A stretch of DNA of 32,322 bases from Alteromonas sp. (GCA_964220215.1 CAXPTH010000019.1:1-32322); one strand, 5' to 3'; positions 2,393-32,322 are shown, numbered from the stretch's first letter. Numbers and translations are program-made. Notes: generated by a model not told the origin, from the sequence alone.

Positions 2393-5179
2393 ATGAAGCA
2401 ATCGAAAAACGATACTATTGTTGTATCCGGTGCTCGGATGCACAACCTTAAAAACATTGACTTAACGATCCCACGAGATAAGCTGGTTGTCTTTACCGGA
2501 CTGTCTGGATCTGGGAAATCGTCCCTAGCGTTTGACACTATTTATGCCGAAGGCCAGCGCCGGTATGTCGAGTCCCTATCTGCGTATGCCCGGCAATTTC
2601 TCAATCAACTGGATAAGCCGGATGTGGACCGCATCGACGGATTATCCCCCGCTATATCCATTGACCAAAAAGCCCCCTCCCACAACCCCCGATCGACCGT
2701 TGGAACGGTCACTGAAATTTACGATTACCTGCGTGTCTTGATGAGCAGCATTGGGGTGCCCCACTGCCCCTCGTGCGGCGGGGAGGTCCGCTCCCAAAGC
2801 ATTCAAGAAATGGTGGACCACCTGATGGGCTCCGCTGATGAAGAACCCACCATCATGGTGCTTGCCCCCATTGTTCAAGACCGAAAAGGTACGTTTACCA
2901 AAGAATTGGATCAATGCCGTGCCAATGGATTTTTGCGGGTTCTTGTGGATGGGGATATCCTGCGTTTATCTGAAAAAATTCAGCTAAGCCGCAATCACAA
3001 GCACACCATTTCGATTGTGGTGGACCGATTTTCACTATCCAAAGCCAATGAGCCTCGGTTGTTTGAAGCCATTGAAACGGCGACCCAACAAACTAAGGGC
3101 ATGGTTGAAATTATCTGGACAGATACCGATCGACGCCAGCTATTTAGCGAACAATTTGCCTGCCCCGACTGCCAAGTCAGTTTGCCCGAAATTAATACAC
3201 GACTGTTCTCCTTCAACTCCCCCGTAGGCGCTTGTGGGCAATGCCGCGGCCTGGGCTATCACTTGGCCTTTGACCCCTTGTTGGTTATCCAAGACGAAAC
3301 CTTGCCGTTGCGCCTGGCCACTCAACGGTGCCTGGATTTGGATTATACCGCCATTGGACGCGATGCGGATCAGCTCTGCCGACAATACGGGTTTGACTTA
3401 TCGGTTCGGGTATGCGATTTAACCCCAGAGCAGTATCAGATTATTATGTATGGGGATCCGGATAATCGATCCGCCGCCTGGCATGGGATTATGCCGGCGT
3501 TGGACATGCGGTATGCCCGATTTCGTCGGGACCACATGCGACAATTTTTGCATCAGTTTATGTCTGAACGCCCCTGCGATGCGTGTGGGGGTAGCCGCTT
3601 ATGCCCCGAAGCGTTAGCGGTTACGGTATCGGGGCTGTCCTTAGCCACTATTACAGAAAAAAGCATTGATGATTTAATTGCCTTTTTTAATCAACTCACA
3701 CTAACCGATACCGAAGCCCATATTGCCGATCAACTCCTAAAAGAAATTGTTGAGCGATTGTCGTTTTTACAGCGTGTTGGCGTGGGGTATTTAAATCTAT
3801 CTCGAAAAGCCGGAACTCTATCCGGCGGCGAATACCAGCGGATTCGGTTGGCCACCCAAATTGGTGCGGGTTTAACCGGCGTGTTGTATGTGTTGGATGA
3901 GCCCAGCATTGGTTTGCACCAACGGGACAACCAACGCCTCATTGACGCCTTGTGTCGCCTGCGAGATTTGGGGAACACGCTGATTGTTGTGGAGCACGAT
4001 GAAGATATGATTTTATCAGCGGATCATGTGGTCGATATTGGCCCGGGGGCCGGACGATACGGCGGAAATATTTTGTTTTCCGGACCCGTCAGCAAACTCA
4101 AACAATCCAAACAATCGGTTACCGCCGACTATTTATTTGGAAAAAACAAACTCAAGACACCCAAAACCCGCCGCAACTGGACAAAATCACTCGTACTAAC
4201 CGGCGCCACCAACAACAACCTCCAAGACGTTTCGGTAGAATTCCCGCTGAATATTCTAACCTGTGTCACCGGCGTCTCCGGATCGGGAAAAAGCACCTTG
4301 ATTCACAGCATTTTAAAGCCAGCACTCATTAAGCATACCAACCGCCAGTCCATTAAATCGCCGCTGTTTAAATCCCTATCCGGGCTGGAGCATGTGGATA
4401 AAGTAATCACCATTGACCAAACCCCGATTGGCCGCACGCCACGCTCAAACCCAGCAACATATACCGGTGTTTTTACCCCCATTCGAGACCTCATGGCCCA
4501 AACCAAAGAAGCTAAAATTCGTGGCTACAAAGCCGGGCGATTTAGTTTTAACGTCAAAGGCGGCCGATGCGAGGCGTGCCAGGGAGACGGCTCTGTTAAA
4601 ATTGAAATGCACTTTTTGGCCGATGTCTATGTCACCTGCGATGTGTGCAATGGCAAACGCTACAACCGCGAAACCCTATTGGTTACGTTTGACAACCATA
4701 CAATTGCTGATTTTTTGAGCATGACGGTGAATCAAGCCATGGAATCCTGCCTCAAAGACATCCCGGCTATTCACCAAAAACTCAGCACGTTGCAAGATGT
4801 TGGCTTGGGGTATATTCAACTGGGGCAAAGCGCCACAACACTGAGCGGCGGGGAAGCCCAACGGATTAAACTCGCCAAAGAACTCTCGCGCCCACAAACA
4901 GGCAACACGGTGTATTTGTTGGATGAACCCACCACGGGATTGCATTTTAAAGATATTCAAAATTTACTGGCTGTCTTGCAACGATTGGTCGATATGGGCA
5001 ACACCGTTGTTGTCATTGAACACAATTTAGATGTGATTAAAACAGCAGATTATGTCATTGATCTCGGCCCGGATGGGGGAAATAATGGGGGGACTATTGT
5101 TGGGTTTGGAACACCGGAAAACCTAGCCAAAATCAAAGCATCGGTTACCGGACAGTATTTGGCGCCATTGTTGCAATGA
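2393..5179 (+). CDS. uvrA: Excinuclease ABC subunit A
   Basis: Two ABC ATPase modules (GLSGSGKS and [13 protein letters not shown] twice, LDEP), zinc fingers and [11 protein letters not shown]. Confidence 0.99.
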
Positions 5180-18790: not shown

Positions 18791-21379
18791 ATGGATACAG
18801 TTTACGACCCCCAATCGTTTGAATCGGATATTTATCATCAGTGGGAATCGGGTGGATACTTTTCACCCGATTTTTTTTCGGATGATCGTCCGTGTTTTTC
18901 AATGGTCATCCCACCGCCGAATGTAACGGGAAAATTGCACATGGGGCATGCATTAAATCATACCCTTCAAGATATTTTGGCACGGTGGAAGCGGTTAACT
19001 GGGCACCGGGTGTTGTGGGTGCCGGGGACGGATCATGCAGGGATTGCCACACAGGCCGTTGTTGAAAAGCAATGCGCTAAAGAAAATACGGATCGACACC
19101 AATTGGGACGCGACGCCTTTATTCAACGAATTTGGGATTGGAAAACACTCTATGGGTCTCATATTGAGAACCAAATTCGGCGCTTGGGGGACTCGGTGGA
19201 CTGGTCGCGTCAACGCTTTACCCTGGATGATCAACTGGTTAAAGCCGTTCGGCACCATTTTGTAACCCTATACAATCAGGGCTATATTTATCGGGGGAAG
19301 TCGATTACCCATTGGTGTATTCGATGTCAATCAGCGTTATCCGATATTGAGGTGAATCATGTGGATCACTCCGGAAGTTTGTGGCATATTCGATATCCGC
19401 TCGACACCGGGACAGGTTCAATTGTTGTGGCCACCACCCGGCCGGAGACGTTGTTGGGAGACCAAGCGATTGCGGTTCACCCCAATGATGCTCGATATGC
19501 GCAGTGGATTGGCTGTTCGGTTCAGCTGCCGCTATGCAATCGAAGCATTCCTATTATTGCCGATGATGCTGTAGACCCTGAATTTGGGACCGGGGCGGTT
19601 AAAGTGACCCCCGCACACGATCATACCGACTACGAGATTGGCCAGCGGCACCACCTCGAGCCTCGGGTTATTATGGACATTAATGGCCATTTAACGGGCG
19701 ATATTCCATCGGATTATCACGGCCTTTCACGCGAGGATGCTCGGGCGACAATCATCCAAGACTTGGGGGAGTATTTGGTCCAAACAACCGATCACACTGT
19801 TCCGCAAGCTCGGTGCTATCGGTGCGATACGGTTGTCGAGCCCCGGCTGTCTAAACAATGGTTTGTGGCGATGAAAGACCTGGTTCAACCGGCTATTGCG
19901 GCCATTCAGAATGGCGAGGTTCAGTTTCAACCCAAACGCTGGGAATCGTTGTATTTAGACTGGATGAACACAATTCGGGACTGGTGTATTTCACGCCAAA
20001 TTTGGTGGGGTCATCGGATTCCGGTTTGGTATGACCCCGATGATCCCGATACGCCTATTGTGTGTGCTGAGGACCCGGATGATCCAAAACTGATTCAAGA
20101 CCCGGATGTCTTAGACACCTGGTTTAGCTCGGCCTTGTGGCCGTTTTCAACTTTAGGTTGGCCTGAAAAAACGCCTGATTTTGACCAGTTTTACCCAACA
20201 AGCGCCTTAGTGACGGGGTACGATATTATTACCTTTTGGGTATCTCGAATGATGACAATGGGGATGCATCATTGCCAGCACCCACCGTTTCATACAGTGA
20301 TCGTCCATGGCTTGGTCCGGGATATTACCGGGAAAAAAATGAGTAAATCGTTGGGTAATGTGATTGACCCCATTGACCTGATGGATACCTACGGTGCCGA
20401 TGCCCTTCGGTTTTGCTTAGCTAGCCATGCAACTTTAGGGGGGCAAGATATTCGGTTTTCAGTTGAAAAAGTAGAATCATGCCGAAATTTTGCCAATAAA
20501 CTATGGAACGCAACTCGCTATTTGTTGCGACAACCCGTGGAATCGGTATCGCTTAATCAACCCGATGTTCAAACCGAAGAAGACCGCTGGATTGTCAGCC
20601 AGTGGTATGCGACGCTTGAATCAGTCAATCACCAGTTAGCGCAATACAATATGGCCGCTGTTACTGAAACAATGTGGCAATTTACCTGGAACTATGTCTG
20701 TGATTGGTATATTGAGATGACAAAGTCTCGAGCATCAGAGGCAGCCCCGGTATTGGGCTGGGTCTTGAGTCAGATATGCATTGTTTTACACCCCTTTATA
20801 CCCTTTATTACGGAACGGCTCTGGGCAGAGCTTCAAGCGCATGGCGCACAATTGCCGGACAAAGTGATTGTTGCTCAATGGCCAACGGTGCAGCCCTCGG
20901 CTATTGCAACCGAATTAAATAGTACGATGGATTTGGTGTTGTCTATGATTCGATCAATACGATCGTTGCGCAAGCAGGTGCAGTTGAAAAATAGTGTGCT
21001 ATGCGATGTCTATATAGCGGGTGATTGTGTTGATCAACTCGCCCCCTACCACCGGTTTTTTAAACAACTCGCCGGGGTGTCCAGTGTCTGCTCGGGCAGC
21101 TGCCCGGGCCCCCATATTCCAGCGGTTGTATTGGGGTGCACGCTTGGGATTCCAATTACGGAATCCATTGATATTACGGGCCACCAGACACGGTTAGAGC
21201 AACAAACTAAACAAACCAAGCAGGCCTTGGATCAAGTTAATAAAAAATTGAGCAATACGGGTTTTTTAAATCAAGCCCCTGAGCATGTCGTTGCCGATAT
21301 TCAGACCAAACAACACCAACTTCAGTGTGATTATGATCAATTGATGATACAATTGAAAGCACTATCACACAATGTCTAA
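18791..21379 (+). CDS. valS: Valine--tRNA ligase
   Basis: PPPNVTG.LHMGH, DWCISRQIWWGH, KMSKS and C-terminal coiled-coil arm. Confidence 0.99.
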   Translation: MDTVYDPQSFESDIYHQWESGGYFSPDFFSDDRPCFSMVIPPPNVTGKLHMGHALNHTLQDILARWKRLTGHRVLWVPGTDHAGIATQAVVEKQCAKENTDRHQLGRDAFIQRIWDWKTLYGSHIENQIRRLGDSVDWSRQRFTLDDQLVKAVRHHFVTLYNQGYIYRGKSITHWCIRCQSALSDIEVNHVDHSGSLWHIRYPLDTGTGSIVVATTRPETLLGDQAIAVHPNDARYAQWIGCSVQLPLCNRSIPIIADDAVDPEFGTGAVKVTPAHDHTDYEIGQRHHLEPRVIMDINGHLTGDIPSDYHGLSREDARATIIQDLGEYLVQTTDHTVPQARCYRCDTVVEPRLSKQWFVAMKDLVQPAIAAIQNGEVQFQPKRWESLYLDWMNTIRDWCISRQIWWGHRIPVWYDPDDPDTPIVCAEDPDDPKLIQDPDVLDTWFSSALWPFSTLGWPEKTPDFDQFYPTSALVTGYDIITFWVSRMMTMGMHHCQHPPFHTVIVHGLVRDITGKKMSKSLGNVIDPIDLMDTYGADALRFCLASHATLGGQDIRFSVEKVESCRNFANKLWNATRYLLRQPVESVSLNQPDVQTEEDRWIVSQWYATLESVNHQLAQYNMAAVTETMWQFTWNYVCDWYIEMTKSRASEAAPVLGWVLSQICIVLHPFIPFITERLWAELQAHGAQLPDKVIVAQWPTVQPSAIATELNSTMDLVLSMIRSIRSLRKQVQLKNSVLCDVYIAGDCVDQLAPYHRFFKQLAGVSSVCSGSCPGPHIPAVVLGCTLGIPITESIDITGHQTRLEQQTKQTKQALDQVNKKLSNTGFLNQAPEHVVADIQTKQHQLQCDYDQLMIQLKALSHNV

Positions 21380-22583
21380 GTTTATTACTCAATTAACACA
21401 CGATCTTGCCTGGCGGTCTAAAACCCATGGGGTCCAGTATAACTTGGACGCATTTTATGGGTATCTGAATGCGTTGGGGAATCCCCATCAGGAACTATCC
21501 CGGTGCCTACACGTGGCCGGAACCCATGGCAAAGGCTCAACCGTAGCATTTTTAGTGTCTGGTTTAATGGCTATGGGGTACAGCGTTGGATCGTTTACAT
21601 CCCCCCATATCCGCAGCTACGCAGAGCGCATTCAAATTAACAACACACCGATTAAAACCGATGATTTTTGGCGAATTTATCATACCGTGCTTGATCGGTT
21701 AAACGTGAACAAGACAGACGCCGATGCTCAAAAAAAAGAACCAACAGAATTTGAGGTACTAACCTTGGTTGCGTTTCTGTACTTTCAAGAAAAACAGCCG
21801 GACTTTATCGTCTTTGAAACGGGGCTGGGTGGGCGATTGGATGCCACGAATGTGATCCGACCCGTTGCGTGCAGCATCACAAAAATTGGCTGGGATCATA
21901 TGGAAATTTTAGGAAACACATTGGTGGATATTGCCGCTGAAAAAGCGGGTATTATTAAACCGAGAACCCCGGTTGTCAGTGTTCAACAAGATTCGATTTG
22001 TGAATCGGTCTTGTCTTTGGTCGCTTCAGACAATCAAGCGCCATATCAAATTTCAGCGCCACTGGACGCGGTTGATGGGTTTCATCTTAAGGCAGATATT
22101 CAGCGTGAAAATGCCGGGTTGGCATTAGCAACCTTGAATTTAATCTTTCCCGATATTGACAAAGATCGTATGATTCAGGCCTTTAAAACCACCCAGTTTT
22201 GGGGTCGATACACCACGATTATACCTAAAAAAACACCCGAAAAAACACTTGTTGTGGACGCTGCCCATAATGTTGAAGGGATTCGAGCCCTAGTTGAACA
22301 AATAAGCCACGATTACCCGGATTTATACCCCGATCACTGCGTGTTTGTTATGGGGATTTTAAATCGAAAAGCCTACTCGGATATGATAAGCCTCATTCAG
22401 GCACCGGTTCGGCTGGTAGACTTTCAGCCCGGGGTTAGTGTTGGGCCCAATGCAACCGTGCCGCATTATGTTACCCACCATACACTTAAAGATCCCAATT
22501 TGTTATCTGGGCGATTGGTTGTGGTAACAGGGTCAATTTATTTTTTAGGCGAAATTATCCAATATCTGCCCGATTCTGATTAA
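21372..22583 (+). CDS. folC: Folylpolyglutamate synthase / dihydrofolate synthase
   Basis: HVAGTHGKGST, FTSPH, ETGLGGRLDATNV, DAAHN, TGSIY. Common valS-folC synteny. Confidence 0.95.
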   Translation: MSKFITQLTHDLAWRSKTHGVQYNLDAFYGYLNALGNPHQELSRCLHVAGTHGKGSTVAFLVSGLMAMGYSVGSFTSPHIRSYAERIQINNTPIKTDDFWRIYHTVLDRLNVNKTDADAQKKEPTEFEVLTLVAFLYFQEKQPDFIVFETGLGGRLDATNVIRPVACSITKIGWDHMEILGNTLVDIAAEKAGIIKPRTPVVSVQQDSICESVLSLVASDNQAPYQISAPLDAVDGFHLKADIQRENAGLALATLNLIFPDIDKDRMIQAFKTTQFWGRYTTIIPKKTPEKTLVVDAAHNVEGIRALVEQISHDYPDLYPDHCVFVMGILNRKAYSDMISLIQAPVRLVDFQPGVSVGPNATVPHYVTHHTLKDPNLLSGRLVVVTGSIYFLGEIIQYLPDSD

Positions 22584-22597
22584 GTATGCAAGATTTG

Positions 22598-22603
22598 TAT
22601 ACT
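22598..22603 (+). promoter_or_regulatory. Possible -10 (TATACT) for the downstream hypothetical operon
   Basis: ttgTATACT in the 42-bp folC-ORF spacer. Confidence 0.4.
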
Positions 22604-22625
22604 ATAGAACGATTATGTAGTCATA

Positions 22626-24527
22626 GTGAGTCTTGCATTTTATAAAATAAATATCAATGAAGGCAACTTCGGTCAGCGGGCGGCTCGTCAGGAAGCGGAG
22701 TTGGGAGAATTTTTTTATGAAATGATTGAACCCAAGCTTCCCGGAAGTTTAGAAGGAAACTTAGAGCTTGTTGAACAAAAAAAAGCGTTTCAACAACCAG
22801 GCACAGCGCGCAAACAGTTTTGGAAGAAACAAGTCTTGCTTCATAATATGGGGGGGCGGTTGTTTGATGAAGATGATTATTTATCCTTTTTTATACAACT
22901 CAAAAATAAAGATAAAAACCGTGTGATTCGAGATACACAAGATCCCGTCATTCGCGATTATTTAAAATCCAAGGAAACGAATGGGTTTAACAGTCAGTTT
23001 GCCACGCTGGAATCCAGGGTCAATACACAGTATCAAGCTATGTTTGTGGATTCTGGCATGGACCATGGGTATTATGGGCAACCGTATCAATACGCTGTAC
23101 GGAGCATTGAGCAGGCGTTGCGATCCGGAACAATGACGGATGCACCATTATCCCTGATTTTGGGGCTTGGGGATACCGTGTCAGAGTCTGCGGCGTCTTT
23201 ATCCCAGGATGATTTTTTATCTCATTTTCAATCGCTATCGGGCAATGTGGCATTGTCCGGTGAGCAAGCTTTGACGGTCGTTCGGTATTTAGCGGCGATT
23301 CACCATGGCTATGTCCAGTCTAGATACTCGTTTGAAGCGAATTTGTCAGAAATACGCAATTTGGATTCGTCGTACGTCGAATCTGAAAAACAGGCCATTG
23401 CGTCAGTATCTTGGGAGATGGCCACATCGCCTATAGACAATAGTATTGAGTATCAACACATTAAGCACAATGGGCATTTGTACCAATTAAGTTACAAACG
23501 CCGTATTGGAACGGTGACGGAAGCTGTCTTTCAACACAGCGGTCAGTTTGATGCGGATGCCAAGGGGGATGTATACGCCGCATTTGTGTATAGCAACAAT
23601 GGGACCTGGTACACACAGGATGAAGCCGGCCAGCGCACAGAATTTAAACCGCCAACAACAACCAATAGCTTGGTGCCGAGTATGAATAAAATTAGTTTTG
23701 ACCGCATTCATTTAACGAGCAATAGTCAACCGTACAAGTACAGTGTATTGCTGAAACAAGCAGCGGTTTGTTTGCATCGGTTGTCTCAGAGCAGTGGACA
23801 CGCGATGGCCGCAGCGTCTCCATCGATTCGGGACGCGCTATTGGCGCTTGCATCGGCTACCAATAACAGAACGATTATAAGCGCCCTTGAAGCGCTGTAC
23901 GCGGAAGTACAGCAGTTGCTCCCTGGCAATGGTGTTGCTGTATCGGATACGAACACCCCATCGGTTAAGCTGTGGGGGTGCTTGTATCCGATCCTTGCGT
24001 TGGGCCGAGTCTTTGCGCACACAAGAAGCTATATTCAGGTTGATCGCATACATAGTGCGTATCGCACACAGGTGGTGAGTCTGTTGGAACAAAAAGGTGT
24101 GATTGCGCCAATTCGGGGAAATGGGGGGCGCTGGCTTTTGCTTAAAGAACTAGTACAGAGTGATTTGCAGGGCCAGAGCGGGGATTATCGTGGGTATTTT
24201 AATGCCATTCAAGATGCGTTAAGTATTCGGGATGTGCACGATATTTTTTCGGATCAAACAGCACTGTTTGAGCACAATGGTGGCCATGTTGTTGGTTTGG
24301 CGAATGTTCAGCCTGTGTATGGCAACCCACAATTATTAGCACAATATCGCCAGGAACAAGCCAATTTGGACAAGAGTAAGACCCGTGATGCGCTGCTGAT
24401 GACGATTCAAAACCGACAAGTTTCCGCTCGCCAAGCCCGAAAAGCGGCGAATTATTCTCAGGCGTACGAATCGTGGCGATCCGATGTTGAAGCGCGGCAG
24501 TTGCAGGACCGCAGAAACAACGCATGA
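22626..24527 (+). CDS. Hypothetical protein, 633 aa, no recognised domain
   Basis: Long open frame with GTG start. The stop overlaps the next ATG (ATGA). No signal peptide or clear TM segment, and a charged helical C-terminus. Confidence 0.8.
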   Translation: MSLAFYKININEGNFGQRAARQEAELGEFFYEMIEPKLPGSLEGNLELVEQKKAFQQPGTARKQFWKKQVLLHNMGGRLFDEDDYLSFFIQLKNKDKNRVIRDTQDPVIRDYLKSKETNGFNSQFATLESRVNTQYQAMFVDSGMDHGYYGQPYQYAVRSIEQALRSGTMTDAPLSLILGLGDTVSESAASLSQDDFLSHFQSLSGNVALSGEQALTVVRYLAAIHHGYVQSRYSFEANLSEIRNLDSSYVESEKQAIASVSWEMATSPIDNSIEYQHIKHNGHLYQLSYKRRIGTVTEAVFQHSGQFDADAKGDVYAAFVYSNNGTWYTQDEAGQRTEFKPPTTTNSLVPSMNKISFDRIHLTSNSQPYKYSVLLKQAAVCLHRLSQSSGHAMAAASPSIRDALLALASATNNRTIISALEALYAEVQQLLPGNGVAVSDTNTPSVKLWGCLYPILALGRVFAHTRSYIQVDRIHSAYRTQVVSLLEQKGVIAPIRGNGGRWLLLKELVQSDLQGQSGDYRGYFNAIQDALSIRDVHDIFSDQTALFEHNGGHVVGLANVQPVYGNPQLLAQYRQEQANLDKSKTRDALLMTIQNRQVSARQARKAANYSQAYESWRSDVEARQLQDRRNNA

Positions 24528-27500
24528 CCCTTTCTATAAACAGCTTACTGCCTACGCCGGACACAGAGTCTCGCATCGCTGAATTTGCGCCCGTACACGT
24601 GCATACAGGCTCAATGCCAGTGGGCCACACACTTGAAGATACCACTCAAATACAAACAACCCCAACCGTGGTGGACGCGCGGCCATCGACCCCAACAGAC
24701 CCGGATTATTTTGAAGCAATCGTATCGGGACGCGATTTTGTATTGGATGATCCTGTTTTAATACACTGGCTAAACACTACGAAGATCCGACAAACAGCTA
24801 CCGTGGTGTACGGCCTAAACCCGCAGGGAGAACGGGTGGATGGGCTTGGGTTAACCTTGGATACTGGCCAAACGGTCTTGATACACCGGAAAGACTTGGG
24901 CCATGTTCATAGTGGCCAATTGGCTGCGGATAGTGCAACAACTCCCTTGTTTGAGCGAAAAGCCACGGGCACGGTAACACAAACCCCGGAGAGCCGCGTG
25001 AATGCTGAATTGGCGCCACGGGCTGGCGTTTCGTATCTGCCGGATGTGATTGACCCGGATGCGGCGGCTGTTGTGGCCATTGTGGCGGATTTGCGCAGTC
25101 AAGGCCGTTTGCGAAGAGGGATGACAAAAGAAGACGTCTTTGCGGTGGTCCAAGCGGAAATGGCTCGCCGATATCAGTATCAATCGGATGGGGATCGGGA
25201 TGCGTGGCAGTCGGCTCACGATACCCTTCAGCGTGGCCAGGGGGATTGTGAAGATTGGAGTATTGCAATGGCGTCTGTGCTAGCCAGAGCCCTGGTTGTT
25301 ACGGGCCATTCGCCCGATGGCGTTCGGTTGCACATAATCGAAGATGGGGATCAGGCACACATGATTGTTGAGCATGGTGGACGGGTTTGGGATACCAAGC
25401 AGCCAGACCGCATACGGGACTACTCGGATAAACCCATTGTAACAATTAGCCAAAATAAGATTTCAGTTAAAGACGAATCGTCTGTTGACTGGTTGCTGGC
25501 TGTGCGCACAGCGTCTGGGACGGCTCGTTCAGAACGTGGCGAAGGCCAATCTGGAGGGCCCTTGATCTTTCAAGGTTTGGCGAGCGACACATCACTGGAT
25601 ATCCATCGCATGATGCATGGCAATGATTCTGAGCTTAAGGAGATCGGCGGTGCGTTAGCTAAGGGGGAAATTACAAAAGAACAGTTAGAAGCCTTTTTAG
25701 CTATTCAGCGCGAATTTGATGCGATGCGTGCGTTTTTTGTTATCTTGATGCATGTTGTGCAACAACGGGGCAAGTGGATTCGATTAATTCTAGCGATCAT
25801 TGAAGGGGTGGAGGAAAGCAAAGATCCTAGCGATCATAAATATTCATTTGAAGGGATTAATTTTAATCAATTGACCCAATCTATACTGGCTGTTTTTGTG
25901 GCTGATATTGAATCGGAGTTGGCCACTAAGCGAAAAGAGATTGCCGATAAATACACCGGCATGGGGTATTCTTTTTTGGATTCAATCTTGGGCGAAACAT
26001 ATACAATTGATCAACAAAAAGAAGAAAATGAGGCGGTTAAAGATGCGTATAAAAAAATTGAGGAACTTATGGTATTGCTTGCTAAGGAGTTTCTCCGGGA
26101 GCAAGATGAGTTAGAGAAACTGTCGGCATCGATGCACCAACGGGTTCACCAGACTTCCGATTTAAAAAACGAAACCCTGGTTTATTTTGGGAATGGCCAA
26201 TCCATGACATTGGCCGATTGGTTAAATTCAGAAGACGGATCGGATTCGTTGGCGGCTATGGGGACACAATTTGCGACAGCGGATGCAGACAACCGCCCAT
26301 TTTTTGATATTGTTGAGGAATCCCTTCAAGCCATGATTATGAAAGGGCGAAAGCTGCAAGCGAATATTCAATTAACGGCAGCGGCATTGGGGTTTCGGGC
26401 GAATTTACAGTATGCGGTACAAAAAATAAGCTTGGGTTACGGCGACTTTGATACTGGGACACAAGCGAAAGTCTTGGGATGGCGAACCAGTCGATACGAA
26501 TTGTTTGAAAGCCAGTTTGTGGACCAGCTCCTTAAAATGAAAAATTTATTTAATGAGTCCGTTAATTTGACCCTTGATATTCAAAAAAAGGAAGCGATTC
26601 GATTCCTTAAAATAGCCCAAGGTTTCTTTAATGTGGTGGTGGTTCCGGCAATCGTGCTTTTTGTACCACCCGGTTTGGGTGCCTTGGCGACGGTTCTTGG
26701 AAATATGATATTTACAACGGCGGTGTTTGCAATGGAGACCCATCTTGAAACCCAATATAATAAAGATATCGCGTTGCGTGCAATGGATGATTCGCAGTTA
26801 ACGGCGGTGTTGGCAGCGCAAGGAATCCCCACCCAAAAGCCCAACGGACACAATCCGCAGGATCGGTCCATATTTTCGGCTTATTCAGCCTATGTGCGGG
26901 TTCGGTTTGAGCAGGGAAAGGTTTTGAAGACCAGTTTGTCTGGTCAAGATCGATGGCAAGACAACAGGGAGGGGGCGTTTAAAAAGTTGGACGCTTTGTT
27001 TGATGTTAATATGGGCGAGCAGTTGCTGGACCTTAATAAAAAAATGGCCATGATGCGGCAATCTTGGGTTCAGCGGTCGCTGCTCATGGCGACGGTTTTG
27101 CAGTTTTCAATCGGGTTTTCTGTTCATGATAAATATGCCAATGAGTTTCGGGGTGTTTCGGAAAAAATGGCCGGCATCGTTCAATCGCTTAAATCGGCTA
27201 TTCAGCGGGAATGGCAAGATCAAGAGCAGCTGCAACGTATTCAATTTGAGCGCGAGAAAAAAAAACGAGAATTGGCTATTGGATACTTTCTGGATATGGC
27301 CAAACACGTGCTGGGCTTGGGCTTGGTTCGGGTTAAGGCCTTACAAAAACAAATATTTTTCAAGCTGACCCCCTGGCATATTATCTACAATTCAATATTA
27401 GGCCCTATTGCCAATGCGATCAAAACATTAACAAAAGACTCCCGCTGGCTATATGCTCGAGACTTTATGAATGCGTCAACGCCAAGTTTATCGGATGCCC

Positions 27501-30500
27501 ATCAGGCACTCAGTGCCAATTCAAATACGCTTCGTGAACTCAAGGCGCGTGAAGCATCCGCTAAGAAACACTATGATTCGGCTCGGCGTCATCGTGAAGC
27601 CATGCAAGCCGTGTTGGCACAAGATTCAGAATCAACCGTGGCGGCACAGCAGTTGGAAGATGCACGGTTAAATGAGGCTCGGACACGTGCGCAGTATGAG
27701 CGTCACAAATTTCAAACCCGGTTGGCGGATTATCGAGACAATGCTTGGGGTATGAATGCTTATGAAAAAGTGTTTTCTCAAGAATTTAAAATGGTTAATC
27801 ATGCCACTATTTTTGATAACTTTAAATGCGTGACGTATTTGTATAATCAATATTATACGATGCAGGCGGCTCGGATGGCCCGGTATCGCGTGATGGATAC
27901 GATTGTTGGGCTGTCTCGGGGTGACCGAGCGGCTGAATCGATAAATTTAATGTCCATGGAATCCGATCTGATTAAAACCCATACAGACAACTTGGTGTCT
28001 CAGGCGAAAGAACAAATCCGGATTGCCAATAAAAAAGCAGACACTCGGTATGAAATTTATGAAGCAGCGATTGATTTGGCTATAACCAGTGCTTTTGCTG
28101 GTGCAATGATTGTGTTTCAAAACCCGGCCATGGTGGCATTTTTTCAAATATCTAAAGAAATGCTCGGTTTGGTGCGTAATACTGTATTCAATGCGATCAA
28201 TCAAACGATGGTTTATGGGGATACCCAAACGCTTGAGGATGACCTGAAGGAAGAAGCCGTATCGGAAGATGCTTCCCACGCACTGTCTGTGGTTAGTCCG
28301 CAGGCGCCAACCCAGAAGCACCAATCGTTAAACCGGGAGTTTGATACCAGCATTCAAGCGCAACGTGGCCGAAGTGGGGAGTATTTTTTAAATCAAGAAC
28401 ACGTGACACAATTTAATCGGGAGTTGGCCTATGTTACGCAAGCGATGCAGCTATCGGCACAGGCGGTGGCTAAAATTGCCGAGCTGCGCTACATGATTAT
28501 GAATCGGATAGCCGGCGGAACCACATCCCCAACCGCAGTGGCCGGTTTAATTATGGGGTTACAACAAGCGTTAATAGACGCCTATTACAACACGCACCGC
28601 ATGGGCCATTTAGAAATAAAGCTAAGCCGAGACACCGATTCCAATGAGATATGGCAGAAAATAACAGCGGACACTATGCATGCGTCTGCCAATATATTGA
28701 GTTATCTTCCAGGGGGTAGAAGTATGACGCATTGGAGCCAGTCCCAATGGGTCACTCGCCAATTGGCTGCGATGGGATCGGCGAGTATGTTTCGGCAAGT
28801 TGCAGAGCACACTAAGCCAATGGTTGGCCGAATGCATGGGTTTTTTGTTGGCCAAGATGACCAGATAGCCCCAACCCTGCTGATGACGGATGCTGCGAAA
28901 CGAGAACAGTTGGCCTATGCGCAATCCCGTCGTGGGGACTATCACGGCATGGCGGATGTATACCAAGCCGCGATGCTGAATAAATATCAGAAGCAATATC
29001 AGCAGCAGCGGTCCAATGCGCGTAAAGAATACTTACAAAAAGTTAAAGCGTTTTTGAATGTGGTTAGCAATTCGGCAAAGTCTGTGCTTAAAGAACCCAA
29101 AGTGCGGGATCGCGTTCGAAACAATGTGCCCCGGTTTTTTGCTCAACACTATCAGAAAAATGGGCTGGGGGCAGCAATCGTTTGGGGAGGGATTAATGGT
29201 CTTTTTTTGGATATTCCACGCACAATGCTAGCCAGTTCTTATATGGCTAACGTCGCCCCGGATTGGCATATTTTGGCTAAAGCGTCTGCACAGGTTGAAA
29301 CCCCGACGATTCAAGCCGCTCTTAAGATTAGCAGTAAAGACGAAAAGCTAACGGCATCACCGCTTTTGGAAATGGCTCGGCGAAAAACAATCGCCGAAAA
29401 CCCGCATCACGATAGCGTTAAAAAGTTCAAAAAAAAGAGCCAGGCGAAGCAGTTTTGTGTTATTGGGGAGGCATTTGCTATGGGATCCAACGCCCAACAA
29501 AAAGTCTATTTTAAAAAGCTAAAAGAATTGCTGCACGAGATCAGTCAGGATACAAGTGATATCCAGTCTATAAACGATTCTCGTATTGGCACAATACTGT
29601 TGTCTCTGGGACAGAACGACTTAAACAAAATGCTAGATATTATGCGGATAACGTCTACATTGGGTGGCTCGGATACGTATACAGTTTCAGAAAATACGCT
29701 ATCCAGCATTCAAACGGTATCCGAGTGGTCACGCAGGGGCTACATGAATGAAGCCGATGTCCACACACGGATGTATAGCCGTATTTCACGGAGCACCTCT
29801 GTTCCAGGGTTTTCATGGGCTAAAGAACTAAAAGAACTAGAAAACAATTTAAAAAAAGCCACACAACCTGATAAACAGCTTCAAGCAGCCTACCAAGCCA
29901 TGGCTGTGGCCCGAATGATGGGGCATAGTCTTAATTTTTCAATAGATGGCTTTCGGGACTATCCCCGGCTTTGTTCCATTATGCGTTCGGTTTGGCACAA
30001 GGAGTTTCAGCAGCCGGCATTTAGGGGTTCACGGGTATTGATTCCGCGCATGCCCCGCCAGCCGTTTCGGTTGAAACAGGTGGATATTAACAAATCCCAT
30101 CCCATGGATGATTTGGATGGCGTGATGGACTATTTGGAACTTAAGCCCTCGAAAACTCCGAATTTACAGTCGATAGATCCTAAATCATGTAGCCCCGACG
30201 AGTTGGCAATAGCGATCTTTGATTACGCCCAAAAAAAGACATGGAGCACAGCTGGGAGTGAGCTTAGGTCTTTTAATCAAGACATAAACTGGAAAGAAAC
30301 AGTAGCGTCTATACGACGGATTATTCAGTATAACCGGGGCGTGTATCCCATGGGGTTTCGAGCGCGTCAAGCAGCGACCAATAAAAACATCCGGGAGTTC
30401 TTAGTGGGCGTGTTTGGTTCAGATGGTACTGAGTTTAAAAACTATTTAAGCACAATACAACCGGATGCCCATGGTGGCGATAGCGGTCAGAGCGTGGACA

Positions 30501-31069
30501 ATGTTTTAGCGATTCTAACGGGCGTGTCTCCGCTACAGTTGGTGGATGCGGCAAAGTATGACTACATTACAAAAGATTTGTTGGTCTCTGAGTTTGAGGA
30601 TTCCGAGTCAAAAGTTGCTGAAGTCTGGGCGGATCAGTTTTTGAAATACTTGCAGCGTAATGGGGATATTGATTCTAATAATAAGCGCGTGAGCTCTATT
30701 AATCAGATAAAGGGTCGGGTCCGGGCATCAGACATTCCGGTTTCATGGCAATCGGCGGTGTGCCAGGCGCTCGACAAAGCCAGCGTTTCCGCTAAAGAGT
30801 CTCCATACAAAAACAGGCACATACAGTCATTTTTAGAAGAGCTGAACAATCCAGCGCTTAACAAAGCAATAGCCGAACGGCTATTGAAGCAATCGGGTGC
30901 GGATTTTGTCCATGACCAAGACCCAATACTCATACACACATGCCGACACGCGACAGGCAAGCTTCAACCGACTCAACTTCCTGCCGATACGTGGACTGGG
31001 TTTAGCAATGCCCGGTTCCCCAAACAATCAGCCGGTGACATGGCTGAATACGATGAGCGGGGAGAGTAA
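24524..31069 (+). CDS. Giant protein (2181 aa): transglutaminase-like cysteine protease domain plus helical repeats with hydrophobic hairpins
   Basis: Y.SD...D.WQS...TL.RG.GDCED (Cys242), HMIV (His279), VWD (Asp290). Long coiled-coil segments and hydrophobic stretches at about aa 694-736, 917-967 and 1178-1226. Confidence 0.8.
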   Translation: MTLSINSLLPTPDTESRIAEFAPVHVHTGSMPVGHTLEDTTQIQTTPTVVDARPSTPTDPDYFEAIVSGRDFVLDDPVLIHWLNTTKIRQTATVVYGLNPQGERVDGLGLTLDTGQTVLIHRKDLGHVHSGQLAADSATTPLFERKATGTVTQTPESRVNAELAPRAGVSYLPDVIDPDAAAVVAIVADLRSQGRLRRGMTKEDVFAVVQAEMARRYQYQSDGDRDAWQSAHDTLQRGQGDCEDWSIAMASVLARALVVTGHSPDGVRLHIIEDGDQAHMIVEHGGRVWDTKQPDRIRDYSDKPIVTISQNKISVKDESSVDWLLAVRTASGTARSERGEGQSGGPLIFQGLASDTSLDIHRMMHGNDSELKEIGGALAKGEITKEQLEAFLAIQREFDAMRAFFVILMHVVQQRGKWIRLILAIIEGVEESKDPSDHKYSFEGINFNQLTQSILAVFVADIESELATKRKEIADKYTGMGYSFLDSILGETYTIDQQKEENEAVKDAYKKIEELMVLLAKEFLREQDELEKLSASMHQRVHQTSDLKNETLVYFGNGQSMTLADWLNSEDGSDSLAAMGTQFATADADNRPFFDIVEESLQAMIMKGRKLQANIQLTAAALGFRANLQYAVQKISLGYGDFDTGTQAKVLGWRTSRYELFESQFVDQLLKMKNLFNESVNLTLDIQKKEAIRFLKIAQGFFNVVVVPAIVLFVPPGLGALATVLGNMIFTTAVFAMETHLETQYNKDIALRAMDDSQLTAVLAAQGIPTQKPNGHNPQDRSIFSAYSAYVRVRFEQGKVLKTSLSGQDRWQDNREGAFKKLDALFDVNMGEQLLDLNKKMAMMRQSWVQRSLLMATVLQFSIGFSVHDKYANEFRGVSEKMAGIVQSLKSAIQREWQDQEQLQRIQFEREKKKRELAIGYFLDMAKHVLGLGLVRVKALQKQIFFKLTPWHIIYNSILGPIANAIKTLTKDSRWLYARDFMNASTPSLSDAHQALSANSNTLRELKAREASAKKHYDSARRHREAMQAVLAQDSESTVAAQQLEDARLNEARTRAQYERHKFQTRLADYRDNAWGMNAYEKVFSQEFKMVNHATIFDNFKCVTYLYNQYYTMQAARMARYRVMDTIVGLSRGDRAAESINLMSMESDLIKTHTDNLVSQAKEQIRIANKKADTRYEIYEAAIDLAITSAFAGAMIVFQNPAMVAFFQISKEMLGLVRNTVFNAINQTMVYGDTQTLEDDLKEEAVSEDASHALSVVSPQAPTQKHQSLNREFDTSIQAQRGRSGEYFLNQEHVTQFNRELAYVTQAMQLSAQAVAKIAELRYMIMNRIAGGTTSPTAVAGLIMGLQQALIDAYYNTHRMGHLEIKLSRDTDSNEIWQKITADTMHASANILSYLPGGRSMTHWSQSQWVTRQLAAMGSASMFRQVAEHTKPMVGRMHGFFVGQDDQIAPTLLMTDAAKREQLAYAQSRRGDYHGMADVYQAAMLNKYQKQYQQQRSNARKEYLQKVKAFLNVVSNSAKSVLKEPKVRDRVRNNVPRFFAQHYQKNGLGAAIVWGGINGLFLDIPRTMLASSYMANVAPDWHILAKASAQVETPTIQAALKISSKDEKLTASPLLEMARRKTIAENPHHDSVKKFKKKSQAKQFCVIGEAFAMGSNAQQKVYFKKLKELLHEISQDTSDIQSINDSRIGTILLSLGQNDLNKMLDIMRITSTLGGSDTYTVSENTLSSIQTVSEWSRRGYMNEADVHTRMYSRISRSTSVPGFSWAKELKELENNLKKATQPDKQLQAAYQAMAVARMMGHSLNFSIDGFRDYPRLCSIMRSVWHKEFQQPAFRGSRVLIPRMPRQPFRLKQVDINKSHPMDDLDGVMDYLELKPSKTPNLQSIDPKSCSPDELAIAIFDYAQKKTWSTAGSELRSFNQDINWKETVASIRRIIQYNRGVYPMGFRARQAATNKNIREFLVGVFGSDGTEFKNYLSTIQPDAHGGDSGQSVDNVLAILTGVSPLQLVDAAKYDYITKDLLVSEFEDSESKVAEVWADQFLKYLQRNGDIDSNNKRVSSINQIKGRVRASDIPVSWQSAVCQALDKASVSAKESPYKNRHIQSFLEELNNPALNKAIAERLLKQSGADFVHDQDPILIHTCRHATGKLQPTQLPADTWTGFSNARFPKQSAGDMAEYDERGE

Positions 31070-31072
31070 GCC

Positions 31073-31963
31073 GTGGACTTAACAATCATTCATGATGAAT
31101 ATATTGCCGGTAAAACAGCCGATGCCTTGCGGGAATCGGAACAGTTTTTCAACCAAGAAATTATTGATCAGATCTGGACCGTCGGGAGCGATTGGCCGGC
31201 GAGCGTTCCCCCGAGAGACCACGCAGAGGCCGTTGCCACCATTGAAGTTAAGGCCATTATTCTGGCGAGCCTTCATAAAAAGCCGATGGACGCGATTGTT
31301 TGGACGGATAGTCGCTTAACGGCACTAGCAGATGACTTGCCGGTGCTGGTGTCGGCGGGATTTGACCCATTGTGGCACTTAATGGTTACACACGGCTGTT
31401 TGGATCCGATGGTTGTGGTGTTGGTGCAATTGGGGTTTTCGGATGTTCAATCGATTATGGAGACGATGCCCTCAGCGTTGCGGGAGCGTGTCTTAAGCGT
31501 GCTGCCCGCCTTCATGATACAGTCGTTAGAGGCATCGGCGTGTGATACTGCACCATTGGGCCATTGCTTTGCCGGTGATGAAGCCCCCGTTTTGTCGGCT
31601 GTTTGGCAGTTGAATTGGGCGGATCATCGGGTGTGGTTTTCACGTGTACAGGCGGCTATTCAATCGGTAATAGACGCCGAAGCGTTCGATTGGTCCACGT
31701 GGTTGCGCGCGTATCGTATGGTGGGGTGTGGCCAGTGGTTAGCGGATTATCGGGAGCCTTTGTGCCAATGTTTTGTAACCAATTGGCTGAAACAGCCGGC
31801 ATCCACAGCGATACAGTCGTGCTTGGATCAATGGCTTTGGCGGGATCGGCAGTGGTTAATCAGCCACCTGTACCACTTAGCGAATACAGGACCAATTCAC
31901 ACGCGGGAACAGGCTTGGCCATTCCATAAGCAGCTCTGTGATTGGTATACTAATAACCAATGA
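31073..31963 (+). CDS. Hypothetical protein, 296 aa, Trp/Leu-rich and predicted helical
   Basis: GTG start 3 nt after the giant ORF stop, GGAGA-like Shine-Dalgarno, ATGA overlap with the next ORF. Confidence 0.7.
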   Translation: MDLTIIHDEYIAGKTADALRESEQFFNQEIIDQIWTVGSDWPASVPPRDHAEAVATIEVKAIILASLHKKPMDAIVWTDSRLTALADDLPVLVSAGFDPLWHLMVTHGCLDPMVVVLVQLGFSDVQSIMETMPSALRERVLSVLPAFMIQSLEASACDTAPLGHCFAGDEAPVLSAVWQLNWADHRVWFSRVQAAIQSVIDAEAFDWSTWLRAYRMVGCGQWLADYREPLCQCFVTNWLKQPASTAIQSCLDQWLWRDRQWLISHLYHLANTGPIHTREQAWPFHKQLCDWYTNNQ

Positions 31964-32193
31964 TCGTGGATTGGCAACACATGACGGCTATGGATATACT
32001 CAATGGCTTGGCTTGGGTAATTTTGGTAATTTTTTTAATTCGCTATGCGTATAAATTCAGTGTTGCTCAACGGAATTTAAGGGCATTAAATCAACGACAA
32101 AAAGAATTGGACCAAGCGATTGATGCAGAAACCCGGCACCTGAAGCAATTGGTGGATGCCTTTAAAGACGACGAGGATCCTGATGCGTCATGA
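31960..32193 (+). CDS. Small single-TM protein with a coiled-coil tail (77 aa)
   Basis: ILNGLAWVILVIFLI helix followed by RNLRALNQRQKELDQAIDAETRHLKQL heptads. Confidence 0.7.
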   Translation: MIVDWQHMTAMDILNGLAWVILVIFLIRYAYKFSVAQRNLRALNQRQKELDQAIDAETRHLKQLVDAFKDDEDPDAS

Positions 32194-32322
32194 ACCCATT
32201 GACGTTGTTGAGGCGTTATCGGTCTTAATAGACTTAATGGAGCTAGCCGATGGGCCAGAAAATCAGAGACAGCTTGATGAAATAACGGGGTCTATTTTAA
32301 AGCTAATCCCGGACTATTTAGC
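32183..32322 (+). CDS. Hypothetical protein, 5' part (runs off the window)
   Basis: ATG at 32183 after GAGGA. Open to the window end: MRHEPIDVVEALSVLIDLMELADGPENQRQLDEITGSILKLIPDYL. Overlaps the previous gene by 11 nt. Confidence 0.6.
   Translation, partial: MRHEPIDVVEALSVLIDLMELADGPENQRQLDEITGSILKLIPDYL

Follow-up and report, generated by a model that had tools for sequence, protein, structure and literature searches.

The 32,322-bp stretch of DNA analyzed here (the window) is the whole of contig C19 of genome G000, a 1.19-Mb assembly of 29 contigs that is 82% complete, so that every genome-wide absence reported below holds within an 82%-complete assembly. The end of the window carries an operon, with genes here named A to E, that is built around gene B, which encodes a giant protein of 2181 amino acids (aa) with a LapG-like protease domain near its N terminus. 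A preliminary description had called this block lineage-specific. The term is appropriate for the sequence, in which A, C, and the body of B are confined to a genus-level clade, but not for the architecture, since the same gene order and protein builds recur across the class. We consider it quite possible, and tentatively prefer the view, that the operon is a genus-specific compact form of a gene cluster of the Marinamargulisbacteria and would encode a complex that resides at the cytoplasmic membrane of the cell itself. The operon likely represents an undescribed membrane-bound complex rather than a lineage-specific toxin system. New here are the ordered set of partner genes (types X, D, E, and Z, defined below), the PlsC fold modeled for Z, the giant in its compact form of 2181 aa, and the evidence from RNA libraries.

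The source names attached to relatives of A, of C, and of a paralogous giant all read "Candidatus Marinamargulisbacteria bacterium," and the sister species G001 is the metagenome-assembled genome (MAG) "bacterium UBP8_UBA6595." Judged from these sequence relatives, the window's genome belongs to Candidatus Marinamargulisbacteria. DNA sequencing runs containing the stretch bear the sample labels marine, seawater, salt-marsh, estuary, and ballast-water metagenomes.

Using B as a query, matches were obtained in 32 of the 41 genomes of the class, outside the genus on the protease domain alone and in open reading frames (ORFs) of 2,100-7,700 aa. The protease domain as a query matched 60 of 146 genomes of the phylum at E <= 1e-5, other classes included. 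Surroundings of giants were taken from 13 further genomes and ORFs were called; the window's own family is designated f1. According to the A1 profile, the protease domain starts at residue 158-186 in 11 of the 13 first giants, compared to residue 175 in B. As in B, a LapG-like head is situated near the N terminus of other Margulisbacteria giants; unlike them, B is short, at roughly one-third to one-half of the typical length. It also has in common with them helical segments of hydrophobic character, a remainder that changes fast, and a distribution restricted to Margulisbacteria plus allied lineages. Downstream of the giant and on the same strand, a trio of D-, E-, and Z-type genes was present in 10 of the 13 assessable loci, distributed over eight families other than f1 and with giants of 4,061-7,424 aa (G009, G024, G021, G039, G013, G022, G010, G015, the first giant of G006, and G036). 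The check for conserved synteny in related genomes, suggested in the preliminary description, gave a conserved order of protein builds. For G015, G006, and G036, the D-type ORF was detected only upon reading the gaps between called ORFs; G032 and G028 could not be assessed, as their sequence stops within the giant.

The ORF starts behind the giants often overlap. Usually, the trio is preceded by an X-type ORF of ~277-330 aa without a membrane segment, which is replaced by an ORF of 1,282 or 1,831 aa in family f12 and is absent in G022. D-type ORFs (90-123 aa) combine an N-terminal membrane helix with a coiled coil, E-type ORFs (177-287 aa) contain 5-16% proline and share a basic C-terminal motif like EKRRKERE..L..DKG, and Z-type ORFs (262-305 aa) start with an N-terminal membrane segment. 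In the window's lineage, C (296 aa), D (77 aa), E (192 aa, 14% proline), and F (241 aa, with an N-terminal membrane segment) match this class order exactly; the complete E and the sixth gene F were read from a near-identical contig (L033, see below). The C-terminal basic motif is common to the E proteins of other families and the 192-aa protein (E192), whose C terminus reads ...DADEKRAALLKKLEAIRDGQN... As a chance control, 1,190 non-overlapping ORFs of the window's genome were sorted by the same classes; 38 qualified as D type, 2 as E type, and 46 as Z type. The probability of an ordered trio behind a given gene by chance is ~2e-6, a rough estimate with classes defined post hoc and independence assumed.

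A hidden Markov model (HMM) of five Z proteins (from f8, f9, f14, and two from f20) run against 3,421 ORFs recovered the held-out members of f12 (E 3e-36 and 9e-31) and f19 (5e-21). Pairwise phmmer comparison of the partners yielded weak reciprocal best matches, with E values of 0.02-0.04 between F241 and Z in a 20-sequence set, and F241 has the same position, size, and N-terminal membrane segment as the Z proteins. Because the HMM and phmmer scores are not significant for the window's lineage, its equivalence to the other families is based on gene order, protein size and build, and the motif at the C terminus of E. The block had also been described as a multi-component unit, a view strengthened by the coupled gene starts, the RNA-library contigs that bridge four junctions, and the order kept in G001.

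The Z protein of G009, modeled on 13 sequences (pLDDT 87.3, pTM 0.82), matched PlsC of Thermotoga maritima (5kym) with an E value of 3.1e-5 and TM scores of 0.59-0.69 over ~245 columns, N-terminal helices included, while GPAT, PatA, and LpxM ranked below PlsC. Going by this model, Z would share with PlsC and the wider LPLAT/AGPAT fold (GPAT, PatA, LpxM) a fold with N-terminal membrane-associating helices. Unlike PlsC, Z lacks a match to the Pfam Acyltransferase domain (four members scanned) and a conserved histidine in the catalytic motif, which we take to be HX4D. Since this histidine column is variable and a canonical PlsC-type gene exists elsewhere in the window's genome (on contig C6), Z appears to be an extra member of the PlsC fold that, judged from its sequence, may be non-catalytic.

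That the giant contains a protease domain, as noted before, is borne out by weak model matches, a PDB profile match, and a conserved catalytic triad. C242, H279, and D290, as well as D241 and E243, are invariant in three full-length B sequences (alignment A1) and are aligned with conserved counterparts in 13 further family members. The best match of the head in that Protein Data Bank (PDB) profile search is LapG (4u65_E, E 0.036), aligned on GDCED and on AHM, the His motif. Weak matches to Transglut_core and a LapG model at residues 203-298 of B are the one family lead in the operon (Pfam, NCBIfam), and they stay below the family cutoffs (PF01841, 16.2 bits versus 23; NF045674, 19 versus 320; PF06035 not listed). 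Beyond this lead, no significant Pfam, NCBIfam, PADLOC, or PHROGs family was found for the operon proteins, the PADLOC and PHROGs matches being at chance level. Exhaustive phmmer with residues 1-1200 of B against 1.84 billion representatives returned 36 matches. Nine of the 10 best (P0004 and fragments) came from the same clade, and all others matched only inside residues 124-311. For 23 of the 26 non-clade relatives scanned, a transglutaminase-like family is listed at E <= 0.001, the families concerned being PF01841 or PF06035; PF06035/Peptidase_C93 is listed for 12 of the 23.

In the available text of PMC13090378, activity of LapG and DvhG needs a C-H-D triad and an adjacent calcium site (in DvhG, D316 and E318 flanking C317), the cleavage site is [T/A/P]AAG, and the enzymes act in the periplasm. 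B resembles these bacterial transglutaminase-like cysteine proteases (BTLCP; PF06035, MEROPS C93; PDB 4u65) in its Cys-His-Asp triad, in the Asp-Cys-Glu calcium motif beside the active site, from which calcium binding is predicted, and in the link to a giant protein. However, whereas the Lap/Dvh protease acts on a separate adhesin, the protease domain of B is fused into the N-terminal part of the giant itself, and B scores below the family cutoffs. DvhG has an N-terminal membrane helix; B has neither such a helix nor a signal peptide, with no hydrophobic segment before residue 168. Unlike in Lap systems, no conserved [T/A/P]AAG site occurs in any operon protein: a search for [TAP]AA[GV] in proteins A to F gave a single instance, DAAAV at residue 180 of B, which is not kept in P0004. 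Also unlike Lap systems, the window contains no LapD/DvhD-like receptor or type I secretion system genes; TolC-like genes are present elsewhere in the genome. Since the triad and calcium motif are kept and both the N-terminal hydrophobic segment and a conserved [TAP]AA[GV] are absent, B would be LapG-like in mechanism but outside Lap-type systems.

Some relatives of the protease head (P0027-P0030, P0032-P0034, and P0045; 1,900-2,900 aa, some of them fragments) show an N-terminal motif, D.TSD[VI]AGGAAVTPSYI..DV, followed by a Ser/Thr-rich linker and then the protease domain. The AGGAAVTPSYI motif, which is absent from B, might be a processing or export signal, such as a LapG-type or double-glycine cleavage site. 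Another relative of the head, P0031 (1,721 aa), also carries ALTTAQ repeats (PF20080); a literature search found no paper containing "ALTTAQ."

Full-length relatives of B were limited to two among 7,998 scored candidates, P0003 (96%) and P0004 (46%). The earlier designation of B as a membrane-repeat protein stood in part: two strong segments of hairpin length (residues 694-737 and 1177-1210) and four weaker hydrophobic segments (849-867, 916-940, 1333-1355, and 1546-1570) were identified, but no sequence repeat was detected by self-BLAST or by windowed hhalign, in which a thin three-sequence profile reached a best probability of 2.8%. Identity between B and its G001 counterpart amounts to 72% for residues 1-747, rises to 89% for 745-1617, and returns to 74% for 1611-2181. 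Identities of neighboring genes are 81.5% (gatA), 80% (gatB), 80% (valS), 76% (folC), and 78% (rpiB), and those of the partners are ~43% (A), 66% (C), 57% (D), 57% (E), and 70% (F). As its identity to G001 is comparable to that of its neighbors, B is constrained like a housekeeping gene within the genus, most strongly in the membrane core.

With a 44-residue two-lobed hydrophobic segment between long helical regions and no Sec signal, B is reminiscent of chlamydial Inc proteins and type III translocators. It differs in being several times larger, in matching no chaperone family, and in its genomic setting, where only flagellar-type genes and no injectisome were found. A chlamydial Inc-like type III effector had been our first guess, which was dropped once the source names placed the genome in Candidatus Marinamargulisbacteria.

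Gene A has seven relatives, all of this clade, and is held by 3 of the 41 class genomes, those of the genus only. It is the fastest-evolving operon member (~43% identity to G001, versus 76-81% for the neighboring housekeeping genes). No family was found for A in Pfam, NCBIfam, PADLOC, or PHROGs, a PDB profile search gave nothing below E 0.1, the Atlas had no usable match, and no homologous ORF was detected near other giants. The homologue in G001 (L020:2293-4659) comprises 788 codons because its variable middle holds a run of N (masked or unassembled); the length of this middle part also varies between species in P0016 (684 aa).

Gene C has five relatives at 56-95% identity, again all of the clade and in 3 of the 41 class genomes. 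An AF2 (AlphaFold2) model of C296 from a six-sequence alignment (pLDDT 68.8) is all-helical with 17 helices and matches generic helical repeats only: the best Foldseek match had E 0.018 and TM 0.22, and VIA gave a best Z of 7.8, in a range which that tool calls common. The type III gatekeepers SepL (Z 6.9) and InvE (Z 5.7) appeared among many unrelated rows. For C, too, a PDB profile search gave nothing below E 0.1 and the Atlas had no usable match. C had been suggested to be a chaperone or immunity factor; no such family was matched, and the generic helical-repeat fold is neutral with respect to a chaperone role. By contrast with that proposal, the description of the 77-aa product of D as an N-terminal membrane helix with a coiled coil agrees with its hydropathy and architecture, and K/R residues immediately follow the helix. 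No N-terminal hydrophobic segment was found in A, B, C, or E. A complex prediction of C296, D77, and E192 scored 0.29 (mark, 0.32).

Contigs from four metatranscriptome runs (four studies) were compared with positions 20000-32322; stretches of B without contig cover carry no meaning. These RNA-library contigs cover portions of valS, folC, A, B, C, and D. Single contigs bridge the folC/A junction (X17, 22493-22696), the A/B junction (X15, 24232-24694, and X16, 24232-24678), the B/C junction (X17, 30998-31179), and the C/D junction (X17, 31914-32104, and X16, 31945-32120). This metatranscriptome coverage, proposed earlier as a check, fits co-transcription, with a start possibly upstream of folC, and because contigs from four runs cover the operon, it appears to be expressed in nature. 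Of the suggested own -10 element at 22598, the TATACT hexamer (22598-22603) is present, but it is not among the sites of the promoter scan, which between 18000 and 32322 gave 22 sites versus 22.9 expected from shuffles. A sigma-28-type promoter before A was unconvincing by eye, and nothing was found in an Rfam scan of the window.

ORF calling reproduced the coordinates of the five ORFs described before (633, 2181, 296, 77, and >46 aa) and their overlaps, which are ATGA at 24524-24527 (A/B) and 31960-31963 (C/D), with a 3-nt gap at 31070-31072 (B/C). The 11-nt overlap of D and E holds provided that E starts at ATG 32183, most likely its start, with GAGGA 5 nt upstream (by eye); the first in-frame ATG, at 32156, would result in a 38-nt overlap with D. 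E is open at the window end because the window is a whole contig, cut by assembly. On metagenome contig L033, which is 98.4% identical, E is complete at 192 aa; its N terminus is helical, its middle is rich in proline (14%), and a basic helix that ends in DGQN forms its C terminus. The sixth ORF, F (241 aa), lies there on the same strand ~135 nt beyond E, in keeping with the earlier count of at least five genes, and is followed by rpiB and, before it, an EamA-like gene, both on the opposite strand. The order A-B-C-D-E-F is retained in the sister species G001, after gatA-gatB-valS-folC. The features of the operon are listed in Table 1.

Table 1. Positions of the operon genes and of notable segments in the window
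Feature	Coordinates	Strand	Evidence
folC-A spacer, 42 nt, with TATACT hexamer 22598-22603	22584..22625	+	Printed sequence; RNA-library contig X17 (22493-22696) spans the spacer
Gene A, 633 aa, GTG start, no membrane segment or known family	22626..24527	+	ORF calling
Gene B, 2181 aa, giant protease-headed membrane protein (predicted), compact form	24524..31069	+	ORF calling
LapG/BTLCP-like cysteine protease domain of B, residues 175-299	25046..25420	+	D241-C242-E243, H279, D290; Cys codon 25247-25249
First hydrophobic hairpin of B, residues 694-737, PPG between two lobes	26603..26734	+	Hydropathy mean 2.3 over 19 residues; hydrophobic in P0004 too
Best-conserved part of B, residues 745-1617, helical, includes weaker hydrophobic segments	26756..29374	+	89% identity to G001
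Second hydrophobic hairpin of B, residues 1177-1210, QNP between the lobes	28052..28153	+	Hydropathy; conserved in P0004
Gene C, 296 aa, GTG start, all-helical, repeat-like, no membrane segment	31073..31963	+	ORF calling, model; position of the ~300-aa X gene
Gene D, 77 aa: membrane helix residues 7-36 (nt 31978-32067), coiled coil, acidic tail	31960..32193	+	
Gene E, 5' end only, alternative start 32156	32183..32322	+	Complete copy on L033

All genes from position 1685 to the contig end are carried by the + strand. Upstream of the operon, the order is tsaB-like, uvrA, a BamB-like gene, clpC, radA, rpsB, tsf, trx, dnaN, recF, dciA, gatC, gatA, gatB, valS, and folC. These ORFs are housekeeping genes, with family matches in 16 of 17 scanned and the 17th identified as gatC by NCBIfam. 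The location directly behind core valS-folC, with no mobile-element genes and with core neighbors on the same strand, supports the earlier view of the block as resident, and the operon showed no meaningful score for any phage family in PHROGs and no match to a defense family. The assumed closeness to the origin was not upheld: dnaN-recF-dciA are in the window (12.8-15.5 kb), yet dnaA is on contig C12. GC skew is negative to ~7 kb and positive onward to the window end, with a cumulative minimum near 6-7 kb.

The genome encodes a second giant (G000:C22:41634-55415; L031:5635-19416) of 4593 aa with the same protease domain at residues 349-477. This domain is 42-44% identical to that of B, and hydrophobic segments lie near residue 3300 and at 3666-3702. 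Ahead of the gene are infC, rplT, and a gene with a bifunctional-nuclease domain. Downstream, D-E-Z partners are absent, and mnmG comes next, on the other strand. Several genomes contain two giants on one contig, G006 (C20) among them. In G021 (L042/L043, G021:C49), giants of 7287 aa (~229-311 and 1792-1848) and 2681 aa (244-312 and 1270-1374) each have two protease domains. Just upstream of the giant in G022, a 1,602-aa ORF (L050:1512-6320) joins a SecA_DEAD-like domain to a protein kinase domain. A shared position of giants after gatB was considered and rejected, as it applied to f12 only (G013, G039, and G030) and 0 of 13 other upstream stretches matched; the gatB position was not used as evidence because valS and folC intervene in the window.

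Secretion genes of the window's genome were also surveyed. Its one FHIPEP gene lies in a FliN-FliO-FliP-FliQ-FliR-FlhB-FlhA-sigma cluster together with an FlhG-like ATPase and a FliM-like gene (C12; L035:13555-20000, L036:115-1353), and rod genes and FliF are on C8:18556-23975; for this reason, the type III genes are assigned to the flagellar type. The flagellin N-domain was not found in this genome, nor were the sheath of the type VI secretion system (T6SS; VipB) or VirB4 of the type IV secretion system (T4SS). One secretin is present, which is short. The exporter check proposed earlier thus revealed a flagellar-type gate with C-ring-like genes and no T4SS or T6SS marker. A conserved orphan cluster of about seven genes, ending in an FlgE/F/G-like gene of 283-294 aa (PF22692, 30 bits in G009; L049:1754-8852), stands back to back with a giant in five families (G009, G036, G006, G032, and G010). 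In the window's own genome, this cluster is on other contigs, C21 (L077:7494-11311) and C14 (L078:10549-13475).

In the interpretation that we tentatively prefer, B would be held in the cytoplasmic membrane by its hairpin-length hydrophobic segments, with both flanks cytoplasmic. D would be anchored beside B from the cytoplasmic side, as would F, provided that F is homologous to Z; C and E would serve as soluble adaptors. Because the catalytic triad and the calcium site of LapG are kept, the head would be a calcium-dependent protease, cutting B itself or a partner and not a LapA-type adhesin. The cytoplasmic side is suggested by the missing N-terminal hydrophobic segment in A, B, C, and E, by the K/R residues after the helix of D, and by the PlsC-like fold of Z.

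A number of observations weigh against this interpretation. The topology is deduced from the hairpin build and the positive-inside rule, and a cytoplasmic head would meet little free calcium. The likeness of the window-lineage partners to their counterparts in other families is limited to order, size, and build: the Z HMM missed F241 as well as the Z-position ORFs of G021, G008, and G006; the D HMM ranked D77 about tenth with a nonsignificant E value of 0.83; and the E HMM missed E192, finding beyond its training families only G010, weakly (0.031). The body of B aligns to no other giant, hhalign finding the protease domain alone (96.8% probability), and gene A has no counterpart elsewhere. Moreover, G020 and the second giant of G006 have no trio alongside, and G008 is rearranged, E and Z lying ahead of the giant and D behind it. 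The modeled Z comes from G009, that is, from another family and not from this operon, and the column of the catalytic-motif histidine holds His in only 4 of 11 lineages (by eye, alignment A6) and not in F241. RNA libraries may contain DNA, and the contigs are no proof of a single transcript. Finally, LapG and DvhG are periplasmic and calcium-requiring in the available text of PMC13090378.

In the main rival interpretation, the giants, B included, would be exported through the flagellar-type gate or in some other way, ending up at the cell surface, in the medium, or in the membrane of a host or prey organism. The head would then be active in calcium-rich seawater and the hairpins would insert into the target, with C as an export chaperone and D, E, and F as a docking platform. 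Such a scheme is consistent with the polar, Ser/Thr-rich N termini of B and other giants, which lack a Sec signal, and with a calcium site as in the periplasmic LapG and DvhG. The genome has a complete flagellar-type export gate, rod, and FliF, yet flagellin was not found (at 82% completeness). In five families, the FlgE/F/G-like cluster adjoins the giant back to back, but in the window's genome that cluster is on another contig; likewise, giant bodies evolve quickly between families, whereas within the genus the conservation of B is that of a housekeeping gene. According to the available text of PMC6784892, the symbiont "Ruthmannia eludens," placed in this class, resides inside placozoan cells, while the genus considered here was sampled from seawater, salt-marsh, and estuary, with no host known. 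Considering also that no export signal or chaperone family was identified, that hairpin 1 is strongly hydrophobic (mean 2.3), which favors insertion in the cell's own membrane, and that D and Z resemble cytoplasmic-side membrane proteins, we regard export as rather unlikely.

The preliminary description had instead raised the possibility of a host-interaction or contact-dependent toxin/translocation system. In it, the giant B would be the effector (toxin) or translocon, C would be a chaperone or immunity factor, and D would be the anchor. Giant size, a protease domain, and small downstream genes would suit such a system. Nevertheless, it is the N-terminal protease, and not a variable C-terminal tip, that the family conserves, the locus has a core-gene context and is inherited with the class, and B diverges no faster than its housekeeping neighbors within the genus. 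No toxin, immunity, Rhs, CDI, or RTX family was matched in Pfam, NCBIfam, PADLOC, or PHROGs, with no search aimed at two-partner secretion genes. As the genome also yielded no T6SS sheath or VirB4 gene, only flagellar-type type III genes, and no matched chaperone family, a toxin or translocation function appears extremely improbable. If the genes were chance neighbors without shared function whose order is alike by coincidence, one would expect what is seen here, namely, that C, D, E, and F show no significant homology to their counterparts in other families and that A is restricted to the clade. We judge this very unlikely in view of the overlapping starts at A/B, C/D, and D/E, the trio in 10 of 13 loci from eight other families, the estimate of ~2e-6, and the basic motif that E192 has in common with the E proteins of other families.

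If the complex does reside at the cell's own membrane, one might imagine a calpain-like membrane-damage system in the Marinamargulisbacteria, and probably in the whole phylum. A latent calcium protease on the inner membrane face would be switched on by seawater calcium at a breach and would cut scaffold or partners, and a PlsC-fold lipid-handling protein, a proline-rich linker, and a coiled-coil anchor would reseal or remodel the membrane. This idea is a long shot, to which we attach little credence.

Margulisbacteria are among the bacterial phyla richest in huge proteins, which are without assigned function in the available text of PMC11573180 and of bioRxiv 10.1101/2023.11.21.568195. A literature search found no paper combining "Margulisbacteria" and "transglutaminase." With its complete partner set, the 2181-aa "mini" member described here provides a workable handle on this huge-protein problem. 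The ordered partners (a helical adaptor, an anchor with a coiled coil, a protein rich in proline, and one with the PlsC fold) point to a membrane-bound complex that matches no described system. The fusion of a LapG-type protease to its own giant raises a testable question, namely, where the head is located and what it cleaves.

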